Shown: one piece after another, positions 6,611-63,266 of the stretch
Numbering within the stretch: the stretch's first letter is position 1
How the letters are laid out: each line of letters starts with the position of its first letter
Source of the DNA: a virus
DNA: 64,000 bases
Direction: 5' to 3' (one strand)
Virus record (IMG/VR): IMGVR_UViG_3300032242_000738
Location: 1-64,000 of that record
The notes under the pieces: model-generated
What the model was told of the DNA's origin: nothing
The model's database searches: none
The model's input: the letters and a program-made list of their open reading frames with translations, nothing else
Made by a program: the position numbers and the translations under genes

Positions 6611-7642
6611 ATGGTTGAATTGAATTACAAAGAACATCTAGTCTATTACATGATTAATAACCTACGATTAAGTAGGTATGATATTCGTTTCCTTCAAAAC
6701 CTTGAAAAAATTAGTATAGTTAAAAAAGTTATTACTAGCAATCAGGCTGAACTAGTTGATAAACTTATAGAAAAATATGAACGTCAATTTGTAAAAAATC
6801 AATTGTTCACTAGTGAATTATTAAAACTGCCATGGAAAACAATAATAGTAGAAACTACTGATGAATATACCTCTGCTCATATAGGTATATTGGAAGATAA
6901 CATCATATTGAAAACTCCATACAATAAATTGTTTATTGGAGCATTTAGGTCACTCAGTCAATCTAGTTTTGTTTGGGACCATGTCAATAAATACTATATT
7001 GCTGATTTAAGTACACATTCATTAAAACTGTCAATACACATGGTAAAAAAGTTCTTTAACGAAGTTAGATATAGCGACAATGTTAAAAAACTATTGGATC
7101 AATTAGATTACTATAAAGATGTAAAATATTGGAAACCAACACTAGTTAATAGTAATGGTAATTACATTATTGCTTGCACTAACAATGCACTAAATGAAGC
7201 TATTAGTCATATTGAACTAAACACAGAATTGACTACAATGGCTGAATTAGTAAGATATGGAATAGATATTGATGAGGATATTTTTCTAACTGATGAAGAA
7301 AGATTTGCAGGATCATATAATCCCAAAATAGAATTGTCAAAGATATGTGATATTGTGCCATGGTTAAAGAATATCAAATGTGATTATGTTTCAGTATCAG
7401 GTGTGGGTCTATCAACTTCAGTTAAGTTTAAAATTGAATTTAAACAGGCACTGGAACGTGCAGGAATAAAGTATAATGATACACTAAAGGTTATAGGATC
7501 GGAACATGTAAAACAATATAAGTTCCCTGTAATAGTCAAATTCAGATTAATGTCAGATTTCACAGAATCTGTACATATGGCAAAAGTAATCACTATTGTA
7601 AATAGTCAACCAGTTAACTTGGAAAAGAATGAAACAATGTAA
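6611..7642 (+). CDS. hypothetical protein upstream of uvsW
   Basis: 343-aa ORF behind TTGTCT-17-TATAAT (6577-6605). Confidence 0.7.
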   Translation: MVELNYKEHLVYYMINNLRLSRYDIRFLQNLEKISIVKKVITSNQAELVDKLIEKYERQFVKNQLFTSELLKLPWKTIIVETTDEYTSAHIGILEDNIILKTPYNKLFIGAFRSLSQSSFVWDHVNKYYIADLSTHSLKLSIHMVKKFFNEVRYSDNVKKLLDQLDYYKDVKYWKPTLVNSNGNYIIACTNNALNEAISHIELNTELTTMAELVRYGIDIDEDIFLTDEERFAGSYNPKIELSKICDIVPWLKNIKCDYVSVSGVGLSTSVKFKIEFKQALERAGIKYNDTLKVIGSEHVKQYKFPVIVKFRLMSDFTESVHMAKVITIVNSQPVNLEKNETM

Positions 7643-9086
7643 AATAATCGTCAAAGACGAAGTAAATGTAAAAATTGAGGGACTTGAACTATCAGAACGT
7701 AAAGCTCTAATGAAAATGTTTGAGTACGAAATACCCGGTGCACGTTATCTACCTGCAGTACGTTTAGGTAGATGGAATGGTAAGGTTAGTTACTTCAGTC
7801 TAGCCGGTAGTACGTACATCAATCTACTTCCTGAAATACTTCCTTACCTAGATAATGCAGGATATGATATTGAACTAGATGATTTACGTGATTACACTAC
7901 AACCTTTACTTTTGACAAAGTGTCCGAGAATACATTTATACATAAGAACTGGCCTAAAGGTCATCCTAAAGAAGGTACCCCAGTAGAATTACGTGATTAT
8001 CAAATTGAAATCGTAAACAACTTCTTAGAAAACCCACAAGCATTACAAGAAATCGCTACTGGTGCAGGTAAAACACTAATGACTGCCGCACTTAGCCATA
8101 GTGTTGAGAAGTATGGACGTAGTATTGTTATTGTCCCAAACAAAAGTCTGGTAACACAAACAGAAGCAGATTACATTAATCTTGGATTAGATGTTGGTGT
8201 ATACTTTGGTGATCGTAAAGAATACAATAAAACACATACCATCTGTACTTGGCAAAGTCTTAACAATATGCTTAAGAAAACTAAGTCAGGTGAAGCAGAA
8301 GTAGAGATTGGTGACTTCATTGAGGGTGTAGTTTGTGTAATGGTTGATGAAGTACATATGGCAAAAGCCGATGCACTAAAAACACTACTTACTAGTGTAT
8401 TCAGTAAAGTGCCCATTCGTTGGGGATTGACAGGAACTATCCCTAAAGCTAAGTTTGAATCACAAAGTATCTTTGTAAGTTTGGGTAATGTTATTGGTAA
8501 ACTAAGTGCAAGTGAATTGCAGGATCAGGGTGTATTAGCACGTTGTCATGTTAACATTATACAGTTACAAGATGGTAAAGAATTTACTAACTACCAAAGC
8601 GAACTAAAACATTTACTAGAAGATAGTGAACGATTGGATAAGATTGCCAGTTTAATCAGTGGTATTAATGATACAGGTAACACATTGATATTAGTTGATA
8701 GGGTCAATGCAGGTAAAGAGATTGTTAACAGATTACCCGGTAGTGTATTTGTTAGCGGTGCTACTAATATGAATGAAAGGAAAGAAGAATATGATGAAGT
8801 TGCTACAAGCACTAACAAGATTATCGTGGCTACATATGGTGTGGCTGCAGTTGGCATTAATATCCCTAGAATTTTTAATTTGGTGCTCATTGAGCCTGGT
8901 AAATCGTTTGTGCGAGTTATCCAGTCTATTGGTAGGGGCATCCGAAAAGCTGAGGATAAAGATCATGTCCAAATATACGACATAACTAGTAGTTGTAAGT
9001 TTGCCAAACGTCATTTAACCCAACGTAAAGCTTTTTATAAAGAGGCTAATTACCCTTTTGACGTAGAAAAGTTGACTTATAGATAA
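7629..9086 (+). CDS. uvsW: UvsW-like SF2 DNA helicase
   Basis: LRDYQ, ATGAGKT, DEVH, GLTGT, QSIGRGIR. Confidence 0.9.
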   Translation: MKQCKIIVKDEVNVKIEGLELSERKALMKMFEYEIPGARYLPAVRLGRWNGKVSYFSLAGSTYINLLPEILPYLDNAGYDIELDDLRDYTTTFTFDKVSENTFIHKNWPKGHPKEGTPVELRDYQIEIVNNFLENPQALQEIATGAGKTLMTAALSHSVEKYGRSIVIVPNKSLVTQTEADYINLGLDVGVYFGDRKEYNKTHTICTWQSLNNMLKKTKSGEAEVEIGDFIEGVVCVMVDEVHMAKADALKTLLTSVFSKVPIRWGLTGTIPKAKFESQSIFVSLGNVIGKLSASELQDQGVLARCHVNIIQLQDGKEFTNYQSELKHLLEDSERLDKIASLISGINDTGNTLILVDRVNAGKEIVNRLPGSVFVSGATNMNERKEEYDEVATSTNKIIVATYGVAAVGINIPRIFNLVLIEPGKSFVRVIQSIGRGIRKAEDKDHVQIYDITSSCKFAKRHLTQRKAFYKEANYPFDVEKLTYR

Positions 9087-9106: not shown

Positions 9107-9607
9107 ATGCGTATACTTACATTAGAAAATTCCTATTATAATCTTGAAACACTTCCGGAAGAAATAGATGACCTTCGTTTTGCTATCTTAGATAACAGTA
9201 ATCCACAAAATGTAGATTATCATTATATCCCATTAATCTTTTTGGAATCATTTAACAGTCCGGCACTTGTATTAAAGATTGGTAATCAAACAATCAAAAT
9301 GCCAGTAGATTGGCAAATATTAATTGGTGAGCAAGAACATGGTGATTTAGAAACATTACCATTAACAAGTATCAATGATAGAGGATTTAATGCTTTTGAG
9401 TTTAATCCACTAACTGCATTTAGTCCTAGCTTTGTACCCATTGAGATTGTAGATATTTACCATGATGTAACATGGTATGCACCACGATTGAAAAACGGAC
9501 AATTCTTATGTGTACCGATTGATGACGGGCCTAAGCCCCGATGTGTATATTTTGTAAAAGAGATTAGTCGTAATTGTGAGATTGTGGACTATAGTCAGGC
9601 TTTCTAA
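9107..9607 (+). CDS. hypothetical protein, possible degenerate Hint fold
   Basis: 166-aa beta-rich ORF; see findings. Confidence 0.65.
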   Translation: MRILTLENSYYNLETLPEEIDDLRFAILDNSNPQNVDYHYIPLIFLESFNSPALVLKIGNQTIKMPVDWQILIGEQEHGDLETLPLTSINDRGFNAFEFNPLTAFSPSFVPIEIVDIYHDVTWYAPRLKNGQFLCVPIDDGPKPRCVYFVKEISRNCEIVDYSQAF

Positions 9608-10197
9608 TGGCAACTAAAAAGACTACTCCAATTGATGAGAAATTTGTAGCGCAAGACTTTGACTTGTTTGATGCACTTACTGCTATGGACAAGAAAGACT
9701 ATGGTTATTATGATAGGTTAAGTGAAGAACAACAAAAGAAGTTTGTACCCTACATGATGACACATTGGATGAGTGCTATTAAGGGCGATGGAGCTGTTCA
9801 AGATTATTATTTGCGTAGTGTAGACTATCATGCCAATAAACATTTGTTTAATGAATATGTACAGAAACATCCCAAATTGCAATGGTATATGTTATGTGCA
9901 AGTAGTCCGGGACTAGGCAAACAATTTCATCAATGGATCCCGCATTTAGGTAGCAAAATAACATCATTAAAAGAACCTGCTAAAACAAAAGAAATAAAAG
10001 AATATTATACTAAGATTTATCCTAAGGTAGATAGTGATGATATTGATGAGATAGCAAAGGCTTTTGTACAAGAACACAAACGCAAATGTTATTTGGCAGA
10101 ACTATATCCCAATTGTAAACAATCAGACATTGAAATTCTCAGTCAATTAGTAACTGAAGAAGATATCAAGCAATATGAAAAAGACCGAGGAAATTGA
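9607..10197 (+). CDS. gp62: clamp loader small subunit (gp62-like)
   Basis: KKFVPYMMTHWMS...HPKLQWYML...KQFHQWI pattern. Confidence 0.65.
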   Translation: MATKKTTPIDEKFVAQDFDLFDALTAMDKKDYGYYDRLSEEQQKKFVPYMMTHWMSAIKGDGAVQDYYLRSVDYHANKHLFNEYVQKHPKLQWYMLCASSPGLGKQFHQWIPHLGSKITSLKEPAKTKEIKEYYTKIYPKVDSDDIDEIAKAFVQEHKRKCYLAELYPNCKQSDIEILSQLVTEEDIKQYEKDRGN

Positions 10198-10873
10198 TAA
10201 CAAACAGTGTTGCGAGTTTTGTAAAGCAGTGTTCCAACGTGAAAGTACAATACTTAAACATATATGTGAACCCAAACGTAGATGGTTAGAGCGTGACCGT
10301 CAGGGTAATCGTGTGGGTTTCCAAGCTTGGTTACAGTTCTATAAGAAGAATACTGCAGGTACAAAGAATCGCACATATGAAGAATTTATCAAGAATCCCT
10401 ATTATCTTGCCTTCATTAAGTTTGGTAACTATTGTGTAGATATCAAGTGTATCAACGTAAGTAGATTTAGTGATTGGTTATTAAAGAATAGTATACGTAT
10501 TGATAATTGGCGACAAGATAGTAACTATACAAGGTTCTTATGTGAATATTTGCGTACTGAAGATCCATTAGATGCAATACATCGTAGTATAGAAACTACC
10601 ATAGAAAAAGCAGAAGCTGAACATATTCAAAGTAGAGATTACTTACGTTATGGTAATGTAAACAACATATGTTATGAGATTGCCAGAGGAAGAATCAGTC
10701 CATGGTTATTGTATCAGAGTACTAGTGGTGTAGAGTTCTTAAGTACATTACGTGATGACCAGCAACGAATGATTATGGATTATATTAATCCAGAGCAATG
10801 GGCATTGAAGTTTAATCGTGATAGTGATAGTGTGAAACAAGTTAAGGAATTATTGAATGCCGGCGGGTACTAA
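10175..10873 (+). CDS. hypothetical protein with N-terminal zinc finger
   Basis: CEFC...KHIC. Confidence 0.7.
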   Translation: MKKTEEIDNKQCCEFCKAVFQRESTILKHICEPKRRWLERDRQGNRVGFQAWLQFYKKNTAGTKNRTYEEFIKNPYYLAFIKFGNYCVDIKCINVSRFSDWLLKNSIRIDNWRQDSNYTRFLCEYLRTEDPLDAIHRSIETTIEKAEAEHIQSRDYLRYGNVNNICYEIARGRISPWLLYQSTSGVEFLSTLRDDQQRMIMDYINPEQWALKFNRDSDSVKQVKELLNAGGY

Positions 10874-11054
10874 AGTTCGTATAGGATGGCAAATAGATTT
10901 CCAATATAATAATTGGAATGAAATTTGTGTTTGGGCCATAGAAAAGTTTGGCTTACCGGGTGATAAATTTGAGACACATGCAACAGAAGAATACATGGAT
11001 TTTTATTTTATAAATGAACGTGATGCTATCTTATTTGAGTTGACTTGGGGATGA
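10857..11054 (+). CDS. small FxLRW-family paralogue 1
   Basis: ends DAILFELTWG. Confidence 0.65.
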   Translation: MPAGTKVRIGWQIDFQYNNWNEICVWAIEKFGLPGDKFETHATEEYMDFYFINERDAILFELTWG

Positions 11055-11266
11055 AACAAGTAACACTGTACATTGATGCTAAAAGAACTATGGAAATAGG
11101 TAATGAGTTACGTACTAGTGGTTGGATCCAAGGTGTTGATTTTGATTATGCTTATTTTAGAACTGAACATGACAATTTCAGCTACGATCCCGTAGTAAGA
11201 CGACATGCAGTATTTACATTTTACAATGATAGTAATGCTAGTTATTTCATGTTGAGGTATGGATGA
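11051..11266 (+). CDS. small FxLRW-family paralogue 2
   Basis: ATGA coupling; ends NASYFMLRYG. Confidence 0.65.
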   Translation: MKQVTLYIDAKRTMEIGNELRTSGWIQGVDFDYAYFRTEHDNFSYDPVVRRHAVFTFYNDSNASYFMLRYG

Positions 11267-11475
11267 GCGATTTACCTTATACTATAATTACTAAGAAACT
11301 TGACCATGATGCAGAAGAATGGTGTAGGGATAACATAGGAGAACGATGGTTTGCTGTGGGTAGAAAGACAGGTAATTGGACATGTTTTTGGGCAGGAAGA
11401 GATGATCCTAAAAGTTATCGTTGGCACTTTAGAAATGAAAAAGATGCTTTTTTCTTTGCGTTGAGATGGCAATGA
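11263..11475 (+). CDS. small FxLRW-family paralogue 3
   Basis: EWC..NIG; ends DAFFFALRWQ. Confidence 0.7.
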   Translation: MSDLPYTIITKKLDHDAEEWCRDNIGERWFAVGRKTGNWTCFWAGRDDPKSYRWHFRNEKDAFFFALRWQ

Positions 11476-11720
11476 TACTTAAAATTGAAGATGGTACAGT
11501 GTACGGTGAACACTATTATTGTGTTTCACTCTCACGTGGTTCAAACGAAGTAATACTCTGGGATGATATTTCAAAATGGTGTGTAGATACATTTGGTCCT
11601 AGTGGTACGGAAGATAGACCCGGAGCATGGACTCCGTATGAACGTTGGTATATAAATAATGCCAGGTATTGGTTTAAAGATAAAAAAGATTTAGAGTGGT
11701 TCAGTCTACGATGGCAGTAA
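11472..11720 (+). CDS. small FxLRW-family paralogue 4
   Basis: KWCVDTFG; ends DLEWFSLRWQ. Confidence 0.7.
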   Translation: MILKIEDGTVYGEHYYCVSLSRGSNEVILWDDISKWCVDTFGPSGTEDRPGAWTPYERWYINNARYWFKDKKDLEWFSLRWQ

Positions 11721-11953
11721 TATTTCAACATTACGACAATAATGTTGGTTGGGAGAACACTAAGCCGGGCTGGCATGAATGTTCAGTCAGAGCGGAACAC
11801 ATTGACAAATACGTTGAAATACTAGATTGGGTAGAACAGCACGTAGGTAAATACACAAGACATTGCAGATGGTGTGTGACTGATACCAGTATAGCAAGTT
11901 TTAAATTTAGATATGAACGTGATTATATCATGTTTACATTGAGGTGGTCATGA
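11711..11953 (+). CDS. small FxLRW-family paralogue 5
   Basis: DWVEQHVG; ends DYIMFTLRWS. Confidence 0.7.
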   Translation: MAVIFQHYDNNVGWENTKPGWHECSVRAEHIDKYVEILDWVEQHVGKYTRHCRWCVTDTSIASFKFRYERDYIMFTLRWS

Positions 11954-12177
11954 CCTATCCTGTATTCAATACAGAATTAAACTTACCGGCATACACCTCA
12001 CATAATTGGACTGAAGTTCAACAATGGTGTAATGATAATATAGGTCCATGGAATGAATCTTGGTATAAATTGGGTATGGATCCAGCTGTCGGAATATTTT
12101 CTGATGTTAAATACCGTGACACATATCTTTTTAAGAACGAACATGATAGACTATTGTTTATATTGAGGTGGAGTTGA
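11950..12177 (+). CDS. small FxLRW-family paralogue 6
   Basis: QWCNDNIG; ends DRLLFILRWS. Confidence 0.7.
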   Translation: MTYPVFNTELNLPAYTSHNWTEVQQWCNDNIGPWNESWYKLGMDPAVGIFSDVKYRDTYLFKNEHDRLLFILRWS

Positions 12178-12443
12178 TGGCGTCAATACCCCATATACAA
12201 GACTATGATGACGATGATCCAGAAATAGAAAGACGAAAGAATCGTTGGAACTATTGGGAAGCATTGAAGAAAGTTCGCAAAGAATATATGCAACAGAACA
12301 GTGAGTTTGATGCATATGACTTTGAAGATTATCTTGTAGGACAATATGGCATAAAGATGAACATAGTTAATGGTAACATCACTGATGGTTATGAGATAGT
12401 TAATGAAAAGAAATACTTAATATTTTTACTGAAATTCCAATGA
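12177..12443 (+). CDS. small protein, divergent member of the same array
   Basis: ends EKKYLIFLLKFQ. Confidence 0.6.
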   Translation: MASIPHIQDYDDDDPEIERRKNRWNYWEALKKVRKEYMQQNSEFDAYDFEDYLVGQYGIKMNIVNGNITDGYEIVNEKKYLIFLLKFQ

Positions 12444-12796
12444 GCAACTTATTTCCCATAACCTCTTTACAAAACGATAAATTTCTAGTATCATGGCCTA
12501 AATGGGAAAACATTAAAAGATTTGATACAAAGAAAAAACTATTAGATGTGTTATTTGACGATATCGGTAGTAGTGAAGTTGGTATCGCAATATTAGCCGG
12601 AATACTAAGCGGTGGTGAAGTAGATGTTATGTGGATAAAATCAAATACTTGGTCACAGGATACATACGGAGAATATGCTAGATACCTAGAAGATATGTAT
12701 GATATTAAAGGTGTAGCATTTAATAGTTTAGATGAAGCAACAAGATTTCAAGATTACTTAGAAAAGAAATATATTTGGAAAACATTACAGGGATAA
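12440..12796 (+). CDS. hypothetical protein
   Basis: 118-aa coupled ORF. Confidence 0.6.
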   Translation: MSNLFPITSLQNDKFLVSWPKWENIKRFDTKKKLLDVLFDDIGSSEVGIAILAGILSGGEVDVMWIKSNTWSQDTYGEYARYLEDMYDIKGVAFNSLDEATRFQDYLEKKYIWKTLQG

Positions 12797-12797
12797 T

Positions 12798-13361
12798 ATG
12801 GCAAACCACATTATGATAGATATTGAAAGTTTGGACACAACACCCAATTGTGTTATACTAACCATTGGTGCAGTACGTTTTGATCCTAAAGGTAGTGGTG
12901 TAGTTGAACGATTGGAACTACGTCCTACAGTTGAGGATCAAACAGAGATTTACAATAGAAGTATCAATGAAGATACATTACGTTGGTGGAGTGAGCAGAG
13001 CCCTGAAGCACTTGAAGAAGCATTGGGAGACAATGGACGCATGCCATTAAAAGACTGCATGGAGATACTTTATAAGTTTTGTTGGAACCGTGATGCTGTG
13101 TGGAGTAATGGTGCAAGCTTTGATGTGGTTGTGATGGAAAATGCATTCAGACAAACAAGTGATAAGCCTAATCCAATACCCTGGCCTTTTTGGACAATTA
13201 GAGATACAAGAACTATTTACGACATTACAGGCGTAAAACTTAAAGATGGTGGGCATAGTACAAGTCATAAAGCAGTTGAAGATGCCGAAAGACAAGCAAT
13301 TGTTGTGCAAAAAGCATATACTAAACTTATTAAAGCAGAATTGGTAGCACCAGCAAAATGA
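12798..13361 (+). CDS. DEDDh 3'-5' exonuclease
   Basis: HIMIDIESL, WSNGASFD, RDTRT, HKAVEDA. Confidence 0.85.
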   Translation: MANHIMIDIESLDTTPNCVILTIGAVRFDPKGSGVVERLELRPTVEDQTEIYNRSINEDTLRWWSEQSPEALEEALGDNGRMPLKDCMEILYKFCWNRDAVWSNGASFDVVVMENAFRQTSDKPNPIPWPFWTIRDTRTIYDITGVKLKDGGHSTSHKAVEDAERQAIVVQKAYTKLIKAELVAPAK

Positions 13362-13921
13362 GAATTGATAGTGACATTGATATAGATTTCGGTGACAGAG
13401 ATACTTTGTTAAGAGTAATACCGCATACCAGAGCGGCTATGCGTAATGTTAAACCTATACGTAATCATGCTACTGGTGTTTATATTACTGATATACCATA
13501 TGATCCGGTGAATAACATAGCAAGTATTGATTATACTGACGCAGAAAAGCGTGGGTATTTTAAACTAGATTTATTGAATGTTCACGTTTATAATCAAGTC
13601 CGTGATGAACAACATTTACTAGAATTAATGCGTGAACCTGATTGGGGTAAGTTGAAAGATCCAGTTTTTGTAGAGAAACTAATACATTTGAACAATCAGT
13701 ATTATAATCTACAAAAGATGCCAGAACCAGTAAATAGTATCCCAAGGTTAGCTATGTTTCTAGCTGTTATTCGCCCCGGTAAAAAGCATCTGATTGGGGA
13801 ACGATGGACTGATATTGCTAAAACAGTATGGGATAAGGGAACTGACGGATATACTTTTAAGAAGTCGCATGCCATAAGTTATTCATGGCTTGTTGCAGTT
13901 CATATGAATCTATTAGGGTAA
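13358..13921 (+). CDS. miniature DnaE (Pol III alpha)-like catalytic fragment
   Basis: SDIDIDF, HATGVY, GYFKLDLL, AVIRPG, YTFKKSHAISY. Confidence 0.8.
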   Translation: MRIDSDIDIDFGDRDTLLRVIPHTRAAMRNVKPIRNHATGVYITDIPYDPVNNIASIDYTDAEKRGYFKLDLLNVHVYNQVRDEQHLLELMREPDWGKLKDPVFVEKLIHLNNQYYNLQKMPEPVNSIPRLAMFLAVIRPGKKHLIGERWTDIAKTVWDKGTDGYTFKKSHAISYSWLVAVHMNLLG

Positions 13922-14293
13922 GCGTTTAACCAGTGTAATGCTACGGCGTTTGCTTCTACGTTTGTTTAATTCAATGATACTACAAACAGGACCATGTAGT
14001 ATTGTGAGACTTTTGTTATTGAATGTTCTAAGATAAGGTTTAAAGATACTCCATTCGTCTTTTAAGAATAGATTTATGGGTATTAATCTATTACTTTCCC
14101 ACCACCAAACGTCTCCTAGTTCTAAGAATTTCTCTTTAATAGTATTATCTATAATAGATCCATAGTCATATATAGTGGTGACTATATCGTCACGGTTTTG
14201 GACAATACCCACATAATCTTGATTTGCATAGGAACAAATGGTTATGAAAGGGTGATTTTCGCTTAGGCGTTTAAAAAACTCGTTTTGTATCAT
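13913..14293 (-). CDS. hypothetical protein
   Basis: 126-aa ORF with GATAAATA late box on minus strand at 14314-14321. Confidence 0.7.
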   Translation of the reverse strand: MIQNEFFKRLSENHPFITICSYANQDYVGIVQNRDDIVTTIYDYGSIIDNTIKEKFLELGDVWWWESNRLIPINLFLKDEWSIFKPYLRTFNNKSLTILHGPVCSIIELNKRRSKRRSITLVKRLP

Positions 14294-15207: not shown

Positions 15208-16182
15208 ATGTTTGATATTTTATCTATAATTCCCGGCAAAAAGAAAACAACAACTAGCGGATGGCATAGTTTTAATGCCATATGTTGTAGCCATTTAGGT
15301 CATAAACCCGATCGTAGAATGCGTGGTGGTATTAAGTTTGATGGACAAACTAATTGGTCAATGCATTGTTTCAACTGTGGGTATAAATGTAACTTTGTAT
15401 TAGGACGTAGTATCAGCTATAAAACTAAACAATTATTGTTATGGTGTGGTATTGATGATACACAAATAGGCAAGTGGAGTTTAGAAAGCCTACAACAAAA
15501 AGACTTATTAGATATTGTAATTCAAAAGAAAACTAAAATAAAAATTAAATTCAAAGATCATGAATTACCAGAAGGTATAATGCTTGATGGAAATAACCCA
15601 ACACACAAAGTGTACATTGATTATGTGCAAGCGAGGGGGATAAATTATAATGAGTATCCGTTCTTGATAACACCTAATCTACCCGGTCGTTATGCAAATA
15701 GAATAATCATCCCCTATACATATAAGAATAAAATCGTTGGTCACACCAGTAGATTCTTAGATAACAAAATACCTAAATATATTAATGAACAACAGCCTGG
15801 ATACGTGTTCAATATTGATATACAGAAACCTGAATGGCAGGTATGTATATTAACTGAAGGTATCTTTGATGCATTAAGCATTGATGGTATAGCAATTATG
15901 CATGATGACATAAGCAATGAACAAGCACAATTAATTGCATCATTAAATAAACAAATTATTGTTGTACCAGATAGAGATAAAACTGGGTTAAAGTTATGTG
16001 ATAGAGCTTTAGAGTTGGGCTATAGTGTTAGTTTACCTAATTGGGAACCGGGTATTAAGGACGTTAACGATGCTGTTGTGAGATATGGTAAGTTACCTAC
16101 ACTATTAAGTATCTTGCAAAATGCTACAATGAGTAAAATTAAAATAGAAATGCAGAGGAAGAAAATTGAGAAAACAATCTAA
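15208..16182 (+). CDS. gp61: DNA primase (gp61-like)
   Basis: Zn motif HCFNCG; TOPRIM TEGIFDALS, VPDRD, KDVND. Confidence 0.85.
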   Translation: MFDILSIIPGKKKTTTSGWHSFNAICCSHLGHKPDRRMRGGIKFDGQTNWSMHCFNCGYKCNFVLGRSISYKTKQLLLWCGIDDTQIGKWSLESLQQKDLLDIVIQKKTKIKIKFKDHELPEGIMLDGNNPTHKVYIDYVQARGINYNEYPFLITPNLPGRYANRIIIPYTYKNKIVGHTSRFLDNKIPKYINEQQPGYVFNIDIQKPEWQVCILTEGIFDALSIDGIAIMHDDISNEQAQLIASLNKQIIVVPDRDKTGLKLCDRALELGYSVSLPNWEPGIKDVNDAVVRYGKLPTLLSILQNATMSKIKIEMQRKKIEKTI

Positions 16183-17605
16183 TAATAAAGAATATACCGT
16201 TGAAATGCAGAAGTTGTTTCTGCAAATGATGATTACCAACGCAGAACTTTATACTAGAGTTATGAACATTATGAACAGTGAAAACTTTGATAAGAGTTTA
16301 AGACCAGTTGCAGAATTGTTTAAAGAGCATACAACAAAGTATAGTGTACTGCCGGATAGCACACAAATTAAAGCAATTACTGGACAAGATATTGAAGTGA
16401 TACCTGAACTAGTACAAGGACATTATGATTGGTTCTTTGAGGAATTTGAAAGTTTTACTAGGCGACAGGAACTAGAACGCGCTATTCTTAAATCAGCCGA
16501 CTTACTAGAAAAGGGTGAGTTTGAACCTGTTGAGAAACTAATCAAGGATGCTGTACAAATCAGTTTACAGAAAGACATGGGTACAGACTATTTCTTAGAT
16601 CCAGCTGGTCGTATTAACAAATACTTCAATAGTGGTGGACAAGTAAGTACAGGTTGGCCCCAGCTTGACAAGATATTATATGGTGGCTTTAGTCGGGGTG
16701 AATTGAATATCTTTGCAGGTGGTAGTGGTTCAGGTAAGAGTTTAGTTATGATGAACATTGCATTGAATTGGTTGCAAACTGGGATGAGTGGTGTATATGT
16801 TACACTTGAATTGAGTGAAGAATTGACCAGTTTGCGTACAGATGCTATGTTAACTAATATGGGTACAAAAGACATTCGTAGAGATATTGGTTCAACTGAG
16901 CTTAAGGTTAAGATGGTTGGTAAGAAGTCAGGACAATATCGTGTTAAAGCATTACCCGCACAAAGCAATGTAAATGACATTCGTGCATATTTGAAAGAGG
17001 TACAGATACAAACAGGGATACGTATTGACTTTGTGATGATTGACTATTTGGATCTAGTTATGCCAGTTAGTGTTAAAGTTAATCCTAACGATCAATTTAT
17101 TAAAGACAAGTATGTTGCTGAAGAATTGCGTAATCTTGCAAAAGAGATGGGTATATTAATGGTAACAGCAAGTCAGTTGAATCGTACAGCGGTTGATGAA
17201 ATTGAGTTTGACCACAGTCATATTGCAGGTGGTATTAGTAAGATTAATACTGCTGATAATGTATTTGGTATCTTTACAAGTCGTAGTATGCGTGAACGTG
17301 GGAAGTATCAGATTCAATGTATGAAAAGTCGTAGTAGTACTGGTGTAGGACAGAAGATTGATTTAGATTATAATGTAGAAACTATGCGTATTAGTGATTC
17401 TGGTGGTGACGGTGAAGATAGTTATAGACCACAACCTAGTGCTACTGATATTATGAGTAAGTTAAAACCACAATCAGTATTACAATCTACAGAACCAATC
17501 ATTGACCAAACTACAGGAGAGATATTAGAACCTGAAAACAAGAAGGTTGTAGTAGATGTTCAGGGTTCAAAACTCAAAAGTTTACTTAATAGTTTAAAGA
17601 AATAA
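16166..17605 (+). CDS. gp41: replicative DnaB-like helicase (gp41-like)
   Basis: GGSGSGKS, LELSE, IDYLDL, TASQLNR. Confidence 0.9.
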   Translation: MRKQSNNKEYTVEMQKLFLQMMITNAELYTRVMNIMNSENFDKSLRPVAELFKEHTTKYSVLPDSTQIKAITGQDIEVIPELVQGHYDWFFEEFESFTRRQELERAILKSADLLEKGEFEPVEKLIKDAVQISLQKDMGTDYFLDPAGRINKYFNSGGQVSTGWPQLDKILYGGFSRGELNIFAGGSGSGKSLVMMNIALNWLQTGMSGVYVTLELSEELTSLRTDAMLTNMGTKDIRRDIGSTELKVKMVGKKSGQYRVKALPAQSNVNDIRAYLKEVQIQTGIRIDFVMIDYLDLVMPVSVKVNPNDQFIKDKYVAEELRNLAKEMGILMVTASQLNRTAVDEIEFDHSHIAGGISKINTADNVFGIFTSRSMRERGKYQIQCMKSRSSTGVGQKIDLDYNVETMRISDSGGDGEDSYRPQPSATDIMSKLKPQSVLQSTEPIIDQTTGEILEPENKKVVVDVQGSKLKSLLNSLKK

Positions 17606-60782: not shown

Positions 60783-61289
60783 ATGAAAACAGACAAATAC
60801 GGACAATTAATATATAATCAAGATGATTTATGTAATCTGTTTTTACAAGATCCAACACGCACTATCAGTAACGCCTTAGTAGATAGACCAATAGAATTTA
60901 ATGGGTTTCTATCATTAGAAAACGTTCCAAATTTAAAAGAATATGTTAATTCAACGTTATCTTTAGAAAAATTTGATAAAATAAATCAATCAAACTGGCA
61001 TATGCCCATAGAATACTATGAGCTAGATATTGCTAAATGGGTGTTAGATCAATGTAAAGATGAAAGTGAATTGCAACGTGCAGGTGATGAACTGATTAAG
61101 TTCCAAGAACGTAATATGTTTGTATTGCTTCAATATTTAAAATATTTGGTTGATACAATGCGTAAACATAACATAGTATGGGGTGTAGGTCGCGGTAGTA
61201 GTGTAGCAAGTTTTGTATTGTTTATTATAGGAATACACCGTATAAATAGTTTATATTACCAATTAGATATTGGTGAGTTTTTAAAATAA
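60783..61289 (+). CDS. miniature DnaE (Pol III alpha)-like N-terminal palm fragment
   Basis: R...EL, VWGVGRGSSVAS.VLF.IGI, ends LDIGEFLK. Confidence 0.8.
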   Translation: MKTDKYGQLIYNQDDLCNLFLQDPTRTISNALVDRPIEFNGFLSLENVPNLKEYVNSTLSLEKFDKINQSNWHMPIEYYELDIAKWVLDQCKDESELQRAGDELIKFQERNMFVLLQYLKYLVDTMRKHNIVWGVGRGSSVASFVLFIIGIHRINSLYYQLDIGEFLK

Positions 61290-61298
61290 GGAAATAAT

Positions 61299-61679
61299 AT
61301 GGCTAATTACAGAACAGCAATGGGTAAAAACGTTGACATGGCAGCACTAACTGCTAAAAATGAAAAAACCAGAGCAGTGGGAAATATGAAAGTTAATGCA
61401 CGTGGTGATTCTATTGATGCAAATGGACATATTGTGCAAACTGCAACAACTAAGGTCAATAATGCATATAACAGAACTGTGGGCAATCGTTCAGCACAAC
61501 CTGTACGAGCAAGACCATCAGCTCCGGCTCCTACGCCACCTAAGCCGTCAATTGATTTGTCACAACTAAATGAAATTGAACGTGAACTAGAAGAATCATT
61601 GGAAGATGATTTGGAAATTGAAAAGATCAAAGCACAAGAAGTTGAAAAAATTAAAACACAGGAAAACAAAAAGAAATGA
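61299..61679 (+). CDS. hypothetical protein
   Basis: RAVGNMKVNARGD motif, SD AAGGA. Confidence 0.7.
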   Translation: MANYRTAMGKNVDMAALTAKNEKTRAVGNMKVNARGDSIDANGHIVQTATTKVNNAYNRTVGNRSAQPVRARPSAPAPTPPKPSIDLSQLNEIERELEESLEDDLEIEKIKAQEVEKIKTQENKKK

Positions 61680-62053
61680 GTGATTACAGTAAACCGGCAT
61701 TTAGCCCCACCAAAGTTGATAAATTAACATTCTTCAATAAAGATATCATTGTAACTGATATGAAGTTTGACCAACGTGTAACTTCAGGTGGTATTATATT
61801 GTTGGACGATGACAAGAAAAGTTCGGGTATTCGTCCAAGATGGGCTAAGATTTATGGTTTGGGTCCAGAACAAGATGACCCACAATTAAGTATTGGAAAA
61901 TATATCCTTATCAGTCACGGTCGTTGGACACGTGGAATTACTGTTGAAACACCAGAGGGCAAATTGACGTTGCGAAAAGTAGATCCTAATGATATACTAC
62001 TAGTATCGGATGAGCCGATGGACGATGAAACATTAAGCGATAAGGTATACTAA
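61676..62053 (+). CDS. GroES-like co-chaperonin
   Basis: TSGGIIL, G.GP, DIL motifs. Confidence 0.75.
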   Translation: MSDYSKPAFSPTKVDKLTFFNKDIIVTDMKFDQRVTSGGIILLDDDKKSSGIRPRWAKIYGLGPEQDDPQLSIGKYILISHGRWTRGITVETPEGKLTLRKVDPNDILLVSDEPMDDETLSDKVY

Positions 62054-62346
62054 TGAAAAGCTGGATTAGACAAAAATTACATAATTTTATATTCCCACAC
62101 GATAATGAGGTTGTGGAAACTAAAACTCATAGAAGAGGTGCTATTGTTTCTTCTAGATCCTCACATATTGATAGTAGAGGTATGAACTTTACAATACATA
62201 TGGCTAATGGCGGGTATGTGTTAGAGTACTCAACATACAATGAAAAAACAGACAGGCACGATACCGCACTACACATCATTACTTCTGATACAGATTTGGG
62301 TCAAGGTATTGCACACGTTATCACACTAGAAATGCTAAGAAAATGA
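62053..62346 (+). CDS. hypothetical protein
   Basis: 97-aa coupled ORF. Confidence 0.65.
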   Translation: MKSWIRQKLHNFIFPHDNEVVETKTHRRGAIVSSRSSHIDSRGMNFTIHMANGGYVLEYSTYNEKTDRHDTALHIITSDTDLGQGIAHVITLEMLRK

Positions 62347-63266
62347 ACAAGAAACTTTGGGTAGAATCATACAGACCACAAACAGTACAAGATTATGTAT
62401 TTGTGGATGATAGACAAAAAGATCAGGTAGAAGGTTGGGTACGTGATGGTAGTATTCCACATCTGTTACTATCAGGTGATCCGGGTACTGGTAAAACAAC
62501 ACTTGCTAAAGTATTGATACATGAACTTGATGTAAGTGAATATGATGTATTAGAAATCAATGCAAGTCGTGAGAATAGCGTTGATGTTGTGCGTAATAAG
62601 ATTGTTAACTTTGTACAAACAATGCCCTTTGGTAATTTCAAAGTGGTATTACTAGATGAAGCAGATTATTTGACACCAGCTGGTCAAGCGGCATTGCGTA
62701 ACGATATGGAAGCATATCACATGACCGCACGATTTATATTAACTTGTAACTATCAACATAGGATTATCCCTGCATTGAAGTCACGCTGCCATGAGTTTCA
62801 CATTACAAAAACAGATAAAACAGAGTTCACTGCGAGAGCGGCAACTGTGTTAGTAAGTGAAAACATTGAGTTTGATTTAGATGATTTAGATAGTTATGTT
62901 CGTGCTACATATCCAGACTTACGTAAATGTCTAAATCAATTACAAGTTAATAGTAGTACAGGTAAACTATTACCACCACAAACACAAGGTAGTAGTGAAG
63001 ATGAGTTATTAGTAGAAGCAACTAATCTATTCAAAGCAGGTAAGATACTTGAAGGTAGACAGCAACTATTGCAATATATTGCATTGTATCCTACACGTAT
63101 TGAAGATACATATGCATGGATGTATCAGAATTTAGATTTGTGGGGTAAGTCTAATGAAAAGCGTGATGCCAGTATTATTGTTATTAGAAATGGTTTAGCT
63201 AATCTAAGCTTAGTGGGTATTCCCGAGATAAGTTTGGCAGCCACATTGGTAGAATTAACAAGTTAA
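62343..63266 (+). CDS. gp44: clamp loader large subunit (gp44/RFC-like)
   Basis: WVESYRP, GDPGTGKTT, INAS, LDEAD, SRC, PDLR. Confidence 0.92.
   Translation: MNKKLWVESYRPQTVQDYVFVDDRQKDQVEGWVRDGSIPHLLLSGDPGTGKTTLAKVLIHELDVSEYDVLEINASRENSVDVVRNKIVNFVQTMPFGNFKVVLLDEADYLTPAGQAALRNDMEAYHMTARFILTCNYQHRIIPALKSRCHEFHITKTDKTEFTARAATVLVSENIEFDLDDLDSYVRATYPDLRKCLNQLQVNSSTGKLLPPQTQGSSEDELLVEATNLFKAGKILEGRQQLLQYIALYPTRIEDTYAWMYQNLDLWGKSNEKRDASIIVIRNGLANLSLVGIPEISLAATLVELTS

Follow-up and report, generated by a model that had tools for sequence, protein, structure and literature searches.

A stripped-down, two-chain family C polymerase predicted in a T4-like jumbo phage lineage, and the lineage-specific exonuclease gene beside it

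The first 64,000 nt (hereafter the window) of the 84,219-bp IMG/VR virus contig IMGVR_UViG_3300032242_000738, a record with an estimated completeness of 24%, carry two plus-strand open reading frames (ORFs) of 187 aa each, located at 12798..13361 and 13358..13921, in which the stop of the first and the start of the second share the four bases ATGA (13358..13361, +). Both ORFs and their overlap are present as the original prediction described them, which read the first as a DEDDh 3'-5' exonuclease and the second as a minimal family C polymerase core, coupled in a manner reminiscent of the alpha and epsilon subunits of DNA polymerase III (Pol III). The locus raises the question of whether a protein of only 187 aa is a polymerase core by itself, and whether the exonuclease encoded next to it is its partner. 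Our analysis indicates that the product of 13358..13921 is very probably one of two chains, the C-terminal one, of a stripped-down nucleotidyltransferase of family C that would have an auxiliary role in a T4-like jumbo phage, and that the exonuclease is not a partner throughout the family. The N-terminal subunit would be the 168-aa product of another gene in the window, 60783..61289 (+). The two products are referred to below as the C half and the N half of a split minimal Pol III alpha.

The C half reads MRIDSDIDIDFGD..., NHATGVY, FKLDLL, VIRPGKK and TFKKSHAISY, in that order, and the series of motifs noticed at the outset (DIDIDF, HATGV, KLDLL, IRPG and FKKSHA) was confirmed to follow the order of DnaE. 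The DxDxD motif is formed by D6, D8 and D10, and is followed by HATGV, K69-L-D71, R139-P-G and K169-S-H171. The protein matched phrog_11778 'DNA polymerase' at 1.9e-57, with residues 5-186 on positions 7-191 of a profile of 197; this full-length profile match of a stand-alone ORF places it in the split family. When a profile of 74 homologues was compared with the PDB, nine matches were obtained at E<=10 and all nine were Pol III alpha chains, among them those of E. coli (2hnh, 1.8e-5), Thermus aquaticus (2hpi, 1.3e-4) and M. tuberculosis (5lew, 1.9e-4). The same profile alignment pairs K69/D71 with K553/D555 of E. coli DnaE, R139-P140-G141 with R639-P640-G641, and K169-S170-H171 with K758-S759-H760; D6, D8 and D10 correspond to D401, D403 and D405, as counted through a fused relative, P0168, which is described below. 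An hhalign comparison of the C half with a metagenomic DnaE agreed with these equivalences (E 1.1e-4). In DnaE, D401, D403 and D555 are the catalytic carboxylates, and the GS loop binds the incoming nucleotide. Alignment to E. coli DnaE, which had been proposed as a check of the original prediction, pairs D6, D8 and D71 with exactly these three residues, and both the profiles and the residue conservation support its view of the C half as a putative nucleotidyltransferase piece derived from DnaE, with the catalytic Asp residues intact.

Conservation of the protein was examined at two distances. Close to the window, 80 IMG/VR loci have a C half that is 78-94% identical, and the DxDxD, KLD, RPG and (S/A)H motifs were intact in 77 of 77 full-length close copies. 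The original prediction had made its case depend on the catalytic Asp residues being conserved in orthologues; across the 74 representatives (30-54% identity), D6, D8 and D71 were invariant, together with K69 and P140, and D10, H37, G40, R139, K168 and H171 were kept in at least 90%. The median Nei-Gojobori ratio of nonsynonymous to synonymous substitution rates (dN/dS) of the C half was 0.088, based on the 1176 of 1540 pairs that were retained with dS between 0.05 and 2, and that of the adjoining primase was 0.042. Among 1.84 billion cluster representatives searched (E<=0.001), the C-half family was recovered as 364 clusters at 50% identity; nearly all of the full-length clusters are 185-215 aa long, and the ORF ends of both halves are identical in all lineages. 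If the two halves were remnants of a bacterial dnaE that had been captured and was now in decay, the absence of large parts of DnaE and the failure of Pfam to recognise the C half would be explained, but this is already contradicted by the dN/dS of 0.088, the residues invariant in 74 sequences, the 364 clusters and the constant ORF ends, and we give it almost no credence. The argument against decay that was first made from the catalytic residues is borne out by the same dN/dS and by their invariance.

The C half has no GxGRGS motif of its own; this is carried by the product of 60783..61289, the gene of which lies 47 kb from the C-half gene in the window. The last 76 residues of this protein matched PF07733 (DNA_pol3_alpha) at about positions 19-96 of 260 (1e-7), and it matched phrog_11127 at 1e-37. 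Its nucleotide-binding motif is G134-V-G-R-G-S139. An N-half profile matched E. coli DnaE 319-418 at 5.6e-6 and, counted via the P0168 alignment, G136-R-G-S139 of the N half corresponds to G361-R362-G363-S364 of the E. coli protein and the end of the N half to N393. In an alignment of the N half of the window with five other N halves and three fused forms, GxGRGS was invariant in the six stand-alone N halves (window, two close contigs, PA5oct, Atu_ph07 and 121Q), and all six end in EFLK or EFLE to within one residue. The N half of the window stops at ...EFLK and the C half starts with MRIDS-DIDID, five residues ahead of the first Asp. Where the one ends the other begins, and together they would amount to one family C palm.

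In E. coli numbering, the cut would fall in the loop 393-400 of the Pol-beta-like palm, between the nucleotide-binding motif and the first metal-binding strand. Canonical DnaE and PolC have a complete palm on one chain; here one chain carries the GS motif and the other the Asp triad. Because the GxGRGS of the same palm sits on the separate 168-aa product of 60783..61289, the active site is predicted to be composite. The N subunit would supply the preceding part of the palm with the nucleotide-binding motif, and the C subunit would supply the metal-binding residues D6, D8 and D71, K69, and a finger remnant with RPG and KSH. A split intein or trans-splicing was considered and rejected, because neither cut end carries additional sequence and Pfam showed no intein family. 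Since neither chain bears an intein or a linker, the two would have to assemble non-covalently into one active site. Taken together, the halves have GRGS, DxDxD, KxD, RPG and KSH in the same order as bacterial DnaE (2HNH, 2HPI, 5LEW), a likeness from which Pol-beta-like nucleotidyltransferase chemistry would be expected of the phage enzyme.

Natural single-chain forms provide a further link between the two halves. At least ten contigs, drawn from two assembly sources, were found to encode fused proteins of 375-376 aa, and these proteins comprise five distinct sequences. In one of them, P0168 (375 aa), residues 15-180 (30% identity, E 5e-20) aligned with the N half as far as its final residue, and residues 190-372 (41% identity, E 8e-29) aligned with the C half. 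Positions 12-121 of PF07733 matched P0168 across the junction at 4.8e-16, the values for P0168, P0271 and P0272 all being about 5e-16, and phmmer placed residues 106-205 of P0168 on E. coli DnaE 319-417 (3.5e-6). In a tree of 39 rows, picked from 96 after a quick tree and with the DnaE outgroup on a very long branch, the fused clade (100/100) was located within a 98/98 clade of stand-alone C halves beginning M-x(4-10)-PDLD. The approximately unbiased (AU) test rejected a grouping of all 35 split rows against the fused forms and outgroup (p 0.006), this group having been named after the tree was seen. The simplest reading is that the fused forms represent a secondary re-fusion of the two genes. 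When P0168 was used to search viral contigs for related loci, none was found; in metagenome contigs it gave two weak matches, and the one examined (L173) is an ordinary long DnaE.

Because the natural fusions join exactly these two pieces, the halves would appear to act as one unit. This bears on the proposal that the 187-aa product alone is a minimal polymerase core. All three catalytic carboxylates are on the C half, and to this extent the original prediction stands; its core, however, is without the GxGRGS motif that the 60783 product carries, the two halves co-occur in five of five genomes and in 96 versus 95 phage records, and the fusions contain precisely the two of them, which makes a one-chain core very improbable. 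The suggestion that the 60783 product be included in any activity assay was apt, as 60783..61289 encodes the N half.

The whole split arrangement was already described in 2021, and the window adds a member to it but no new kind of enzyme. Iyer, Anantharaman, Krishnan, Burroughs and Aravind (Viruses 13:63, PMC7824862) reported a split minimal Pol III alpha in the T4-like group 2.2 jumbo phages, divided into an NTP-binding part and a Mg2+/template-binding part, and suggested that it may cooperate with the family B enzyme in one-strand synthesis or repair; where their article deals with the group 2.2 phages, these are described as having no other Pol III domains (PMC7824862). The enzyme of the window resembles theirs in consisting of two stand-alone proteins from distant genes, with no other Pol III domains found on its contig. 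It differs from the cultured members by an insertion immediately upstream of the C half, which consists of a DEDDh exonuclease gene and an array of mini-paralogues. Re-fused single-chain forms get no mention in the main text of Iyer et al.; their nesting in the split family is new in this analysis, and the exonuclease link also goes beyond that text. In a full-text literature search, only Iyer et al. 2021 (PMC7824862) was found to describe the family. In the portions that concern Pol III, the PaBG paper treats the gamma and beta subunits only and the Sharanji paper merely lists a 'DNA polymerase III DnaE' gene. In GenBank, the N half of many phages already carries the label 'DNA polymerase III alpha subunit'.

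The C half matched 96 phage records, all at less than 60% identity, and the N half matched 95, with near-identical genus tallies. Among the matches listed, nearly all are to genomes of 280-490 kb, which include PA5oct, Atu_ph07, RaK2, GAP32, 121Q, PBECO4 and CBB. The C half of the uncultured lake lineage is at most 48% identical to cultured members, and no cultured phage was matched when the locus was searched with megablast. Proteins identical to those of this locus are also encoded on a 231-kb contig. The C half was also found in a sub-jumbo phage, Alishewanella phage vB_AspM_Slickus01 (L006, 141,644 bp), in which a gene for the RFC small subunit lies three genes upstream of it, and an N-half match was seen in a relative of this phage, Slicko01 (141 kb). 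In Atu_ph07, the RefSeq start of the C-half orthologue (NC_042013.1, gp074; L002:4956-5531) is probably 27 codons late; an upstream in-frame ATG gives MKNIPDIDIDF, and so restores the DxDxD that is absent from the annotated protein. With this start, all seven cultured and window sequences of alignment A1 have DxDxD.

Each half is seated in a different replication module, the C half in that of the primase and helicase and the N half in that of the clamp loader. The order common to Atu_ph07, PA5oct, GAP32 and 121Q is a UvsW-like helicase, three ORFs of unknown function and the C half, followed by a convergent ORF (phrog_11637), a structural protein, a DnaG-like primase and a gp41-like helicase. 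In the window, the UvsW-like helicase at the upstream end of this conserved module is at 7629..9086 (+), and the DnaG-like primase and gp41/DnaB-like helicase are at 15208..16182 (+) and 16166..17605 (+). The conserved neighbours of the C half are the upstream ORF 10175..10873 (+, phrog_11058) and the convergent ORF 13913..14293 (-, phrog_11637), both of unknown function, and the 3' end of the latter overlaps that of the C half. The N half was present in five of five larger relatives, 31-182 kb away from the C half. The gp44-like clamp-loader large subunit (62343..63266, +; phrog_168 at 1.2e-73) follows the N half at a distance of about 1 kb, an arrangement kept in five of five relatives.

A family B polymerase was likewise found in five of five larger relatives, both close contigs included. 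The original prediction had remarked that no such polymerase is encoded in the window, which is true of the window but reflects a fragment that is about 24% complete; since five of five larger relatives carry the gene, its absence here says nothing. The contig itself has T4-like replication genes, and PHP, finger and HhH domains were not found on it. The locus is like PA5oct, Atu_ph07, GAP32 and 121Q in its gene neighbourhoods, with a family B polymerase alongside in relatives. Because both halves sit in replication modules and a family B replicase is encoded alongside in relatives, an auxiliary job at the fork or in repair seems the most likely. The mini-enzyme would accompany the family B replicase rather than replace it, and would perform auxiliary DNA synthesis at the fork or in repair, as Iyer et al. 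also proposed. We infer the heterodimer, its composite active site, its DNA polymerase activity and its auxiliary role from sequence comparison.

Relative to DnaE the phage enzyme is strongly reduced. The distance from D8 to K69 is 61 residues versus 150 in E. coli (D403 to K553), with the thumb almost gone; D71 to R139 spans 68 residues versus 84 (D555 to R639), and G141 to K169 spans 28 versus 117 (G641 to K758). The C-half chain stops 16 residues past KSH, whereas DnaE continues for about 390 residues. The missing parts listed in the original prediction were all verified, the thumb being near-absent, the fingers shortened, and the clamp-binding, HhH and OB regions lacking. DnaE domains were searched for in five records (the contig of the window, two close contigs of 250 and 264 kb, PA5oct and 121Q): PHP (PF02811) was found in 0 of 5, with the search control positive in 14 of 14 genomes, HhH (PF14579, HHH_6) in 0 of 5, and the finger domain PF17657 gave nothing beyond one sub-threshold match, inside the C-half orthologue of 121Q. 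The C half falls in one Atlas cluster of 850 members, 12% of which have PF17657. Unlike DnaE, which has about 1160 aa in one chain, the phage enzyme would have about 355 aa in two chains, without PHP, clamp-binding motif, HhH or OB, and would not be the main replicase of the phage.

Such a reduction could also be taken to mean that the heterodimer is a repurposed Pol-beta-fold nucleotidyltransferase and not a templated DNA polymerase, acting for example in untemplated tailing, in short primer extension or hand-off, or in the synthesis of a nucleotide signal. The 61 residues from D8 to K69 in place of 150, the 28 between RPG and KSH in place of 117, the lack of clamp-binding, HhH and OB regions and the full family B replicase of the relatives all fit with this. 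We nevertheless consider it unlikely, because the RPG and KSH motifs that were kept are contacts of DnaE with DNA and dNTP, beyond the generic triad, and because both genes hold fixed places in replication modules across clades. Auxiliary DNA synthesis by the two-chain family C enzyme is the reading followed below.

The second part of the question concerns the neighbouring gene. The product of 12798..13361 (+, 187 aa) matched PF16473 (Rv2179c-like 3'-5' exonuclease) at 3.4e-34 over residues 3-172, its sole Pfam family, as well as phrog_255 'exonuclease', and a DEDDh pattern was recognised by eye in IDIESLD, NGASFD and HKAVEDA. The nearest solved structure is PDB 8kel 'Exodeoxyribonuclease' (227 aa, E 1e-3), which we take to be of the T4 DexA type. 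Members of the family were found in 413 records from highly diverse phages, among them genes annotated as 'exonuclease A' in T4-like phages. In its PF16473 and phrog_255 matches the protein resembles the Rv2179c-like and 'exonuclease A' DEDDh exonucleases; unlike the 227-aa 8kel-type enzyme it has 187 aa and is, by position, translationally coupled to a polymerase half. By the same token it would be co-transcribed with the C half.

Adjacency of the exonuclease was scored in the 65 of 80 close loci that had more than 600 nt of upstream flank, with gap sizes extrapolated from tblastn ends. It was found upstream of the C half in all 65. The two genes touch or overlap in 53 of these loci, 23 of which show the exact ATGA overlap, and are separated by 183-918 nt in the remaining 12. 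In the sister clade, with a polymerase half 52-67% identical, none of 80 loci had the exonuclease within 4 kb, and in most of them, as in PA5oct, the gene immediately before the polymerase half is a homologue of the 10175 ORF. Among six cultured relatives none had it near the C half: the complete PA5oct and Atu_ph07 genomes lack PF16473, and in 121Q the domain is located about 38 kb from the C half. The overlap is of a common type in the window, where 8 of 60 same-strand (+/+) junctions have an ATGA overlap and 21 of 60 have an overlap of any kind.

The arrangement resembles E. coli alpha-epsilon (DnaE-DnaQ) in that a DEDDh exonuclease gene adjoins a family C piece without an editing domain. 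It is unlike alpha-epsilon in that the exonuclease belongs to PF16473, in that the pairing is limited to one clade, and in that PHP is lacking. The epsilon subunit of E. coli docks on the PHP domain of alpha. An epsilon-like partner would be expected to have an intact DEDDh fold, which is seen here, and to be associated with the polymerase wherever it occurs, which is not seen. The alpha/epsilon-like coupling suggested at the outset does not extend across the family, as it is found in all 65 of the close loci but in none of the 80 from the sister clade and in none of the six cultured relatives.

A narrower version would restrict the partnership to the freshwater clade, with the exonuclease as a dedicated proofreading subunit and the N half, C half and DEDDh protein forming a three-chain editing polymerase. 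The DexA-type exonuclease would then be a trans-acting editor and the complex of 168 + 187 + 187 aa the smallest known proofreading family C polymerase; if so, it would work beside the family B replicase, perhaps extending primers of the primase encoded nearby downstream. The position of the exonuclease in the close loci (65/65 upstream, 53/65 abutting or overlapping, 23/65 with ATGA), its dN/dS of 0.085, and a mini-polymerase without PHP and without an editing domain of its own are what such a complex would predict. We nevertheless regard both the three-chain complex and its trans-acting editor as quite improbable, given the absence of the gene from the sister-clade loci and from the vicinity of the C half in cultured relatives, the other genes that intervene in 12 of 65 close loci, the routine nature of ATGA overlaps (8/60), the spread of the exonuclease family over 413 records of phages of unrelated kinds, and the lack here of PHP, the docking site of epsilon. 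The coupling most likely reflects gene packing and not an old partnership of the alpha/epsilon kind, and the exonuclease looks like a recent, lineage-specific neighbour. Because it is clade-specific, it is to be treated as optional; though improbable, a functional link local to the clade is conceivable, since the gene is kept in place and under selection.

Several points weigh against the overall reading of a two-chain family C enzyme with an optional exonuclease. Pfam gave zero matches when run on the C half as a single sequence, a C-half profile built from seven sequences reached DnaE only at E 0.5-2, and the supporting matches to DnaE depended on profiles and had modest E-values (1e-4 to 1e-6). 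The composite active site is drawn from alignment of sequences. The reduced thumb and fingers may not hold the primer-template well enough for templated synthesis. The full-text literature search found no activity, complex or expression data for any member of the family, and a family B polymerase was not found on the 84-kb contig, window included. No RNA sequencing run was found to contain the stretch, which counts for neither side. On the side of the exonuclease, its presence upstream of the C half in every one of the 65 close loci and its dN/dS of 0.085 (from the 15 of 80 loci that gave a full ungapped exonuclease), which indicates purifying selection, count in favour of a closer tie than the one adopted here.

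On the reading adopted here, the split mini Pol III alpha is among the oddest polymerases known from sequence, and it has been retained throughout a branch of T4-like giant phages in which a family B replicase is already present. The natural single-chain versions are an easier construct to express. Separately encoded chains of a replicative-type enzyme are also known in family B, and some T4 relatives have a split gp43. Unlike the split family B polymerases, the family C palm is here cut inside the nucleotidyltransferase fold itself. A split family B polymerase is reported for chimalliviruses in a 2026 bioRxiv preprint (PMC13648687). In PA5oct (MK797984.1, 217618-221395), family B matches were found in two frames of 825 aa and 379 aa, about 2.5 kb apart, and in Atu_ph07 (NC_042013.1, 212336-213688) they were found as adjoining frames of 578 aa and 418 aa. 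The main replicase of these two phages may also be encoded in pieces.

Apart from the polymerase halves, the conserved modules contain several small genes. ORFs matching phrog_11279, 11758, 11058 and 11637 (9107-10873 and 13913-14293(-)) lie on either side of the C half in every, or almost every, clade examined, and are candidates for accessory factors; a scan of the ORFs starting at 9107, 9607, 10175 and 13913(-) for hints of an accessory subunit gave only PHROGs of unknown function. Between the N half and the clamp loader (60783-63266) there are two to three small ORFs, one of which is phrog_931 'head morphogenesis', and the order from N half to clamp loader is common to PA5oct, Atu_ph07, 121Q and the two close contigs (L088-L092). 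A tRNA scan of the 64-kb window found none.

The 2.5 kb from 10873 to 13358 can be read as a variable slot, which is empty in the sister clade and which in the lake clade would have been filled by a mini-paralogue block and the DexA-type exonuclease. The block (10857..12796, +) is variable and consists of mini-paralogues ending F-x-L-R-W and a 118-aa ORF at 12440. Its small ORFs between 10857 and 12443 overlap one another and are about 77-91 aa long, with products ending ...LRWQ, ...LRWS or ...LLKFQ; zero Pfam or PHROG matches were obtained for 10857-12796, and the number and identity of the mini-ORFs differ among close relatives. The exonuclease-polymerase junction is itself a hot spot for insertions. 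In one close locus (L069, 5687-6004) the gap contains a 105-aa ORF of unknown function, and in another (L021, 3648-4576) it contains a dTDP-4-dehydrorhamnose epimerase-like gene (PF00908) and a cytidylyltransferase-like gene (PF01467), both of them chained to their neighbours by ATGA overlaps.

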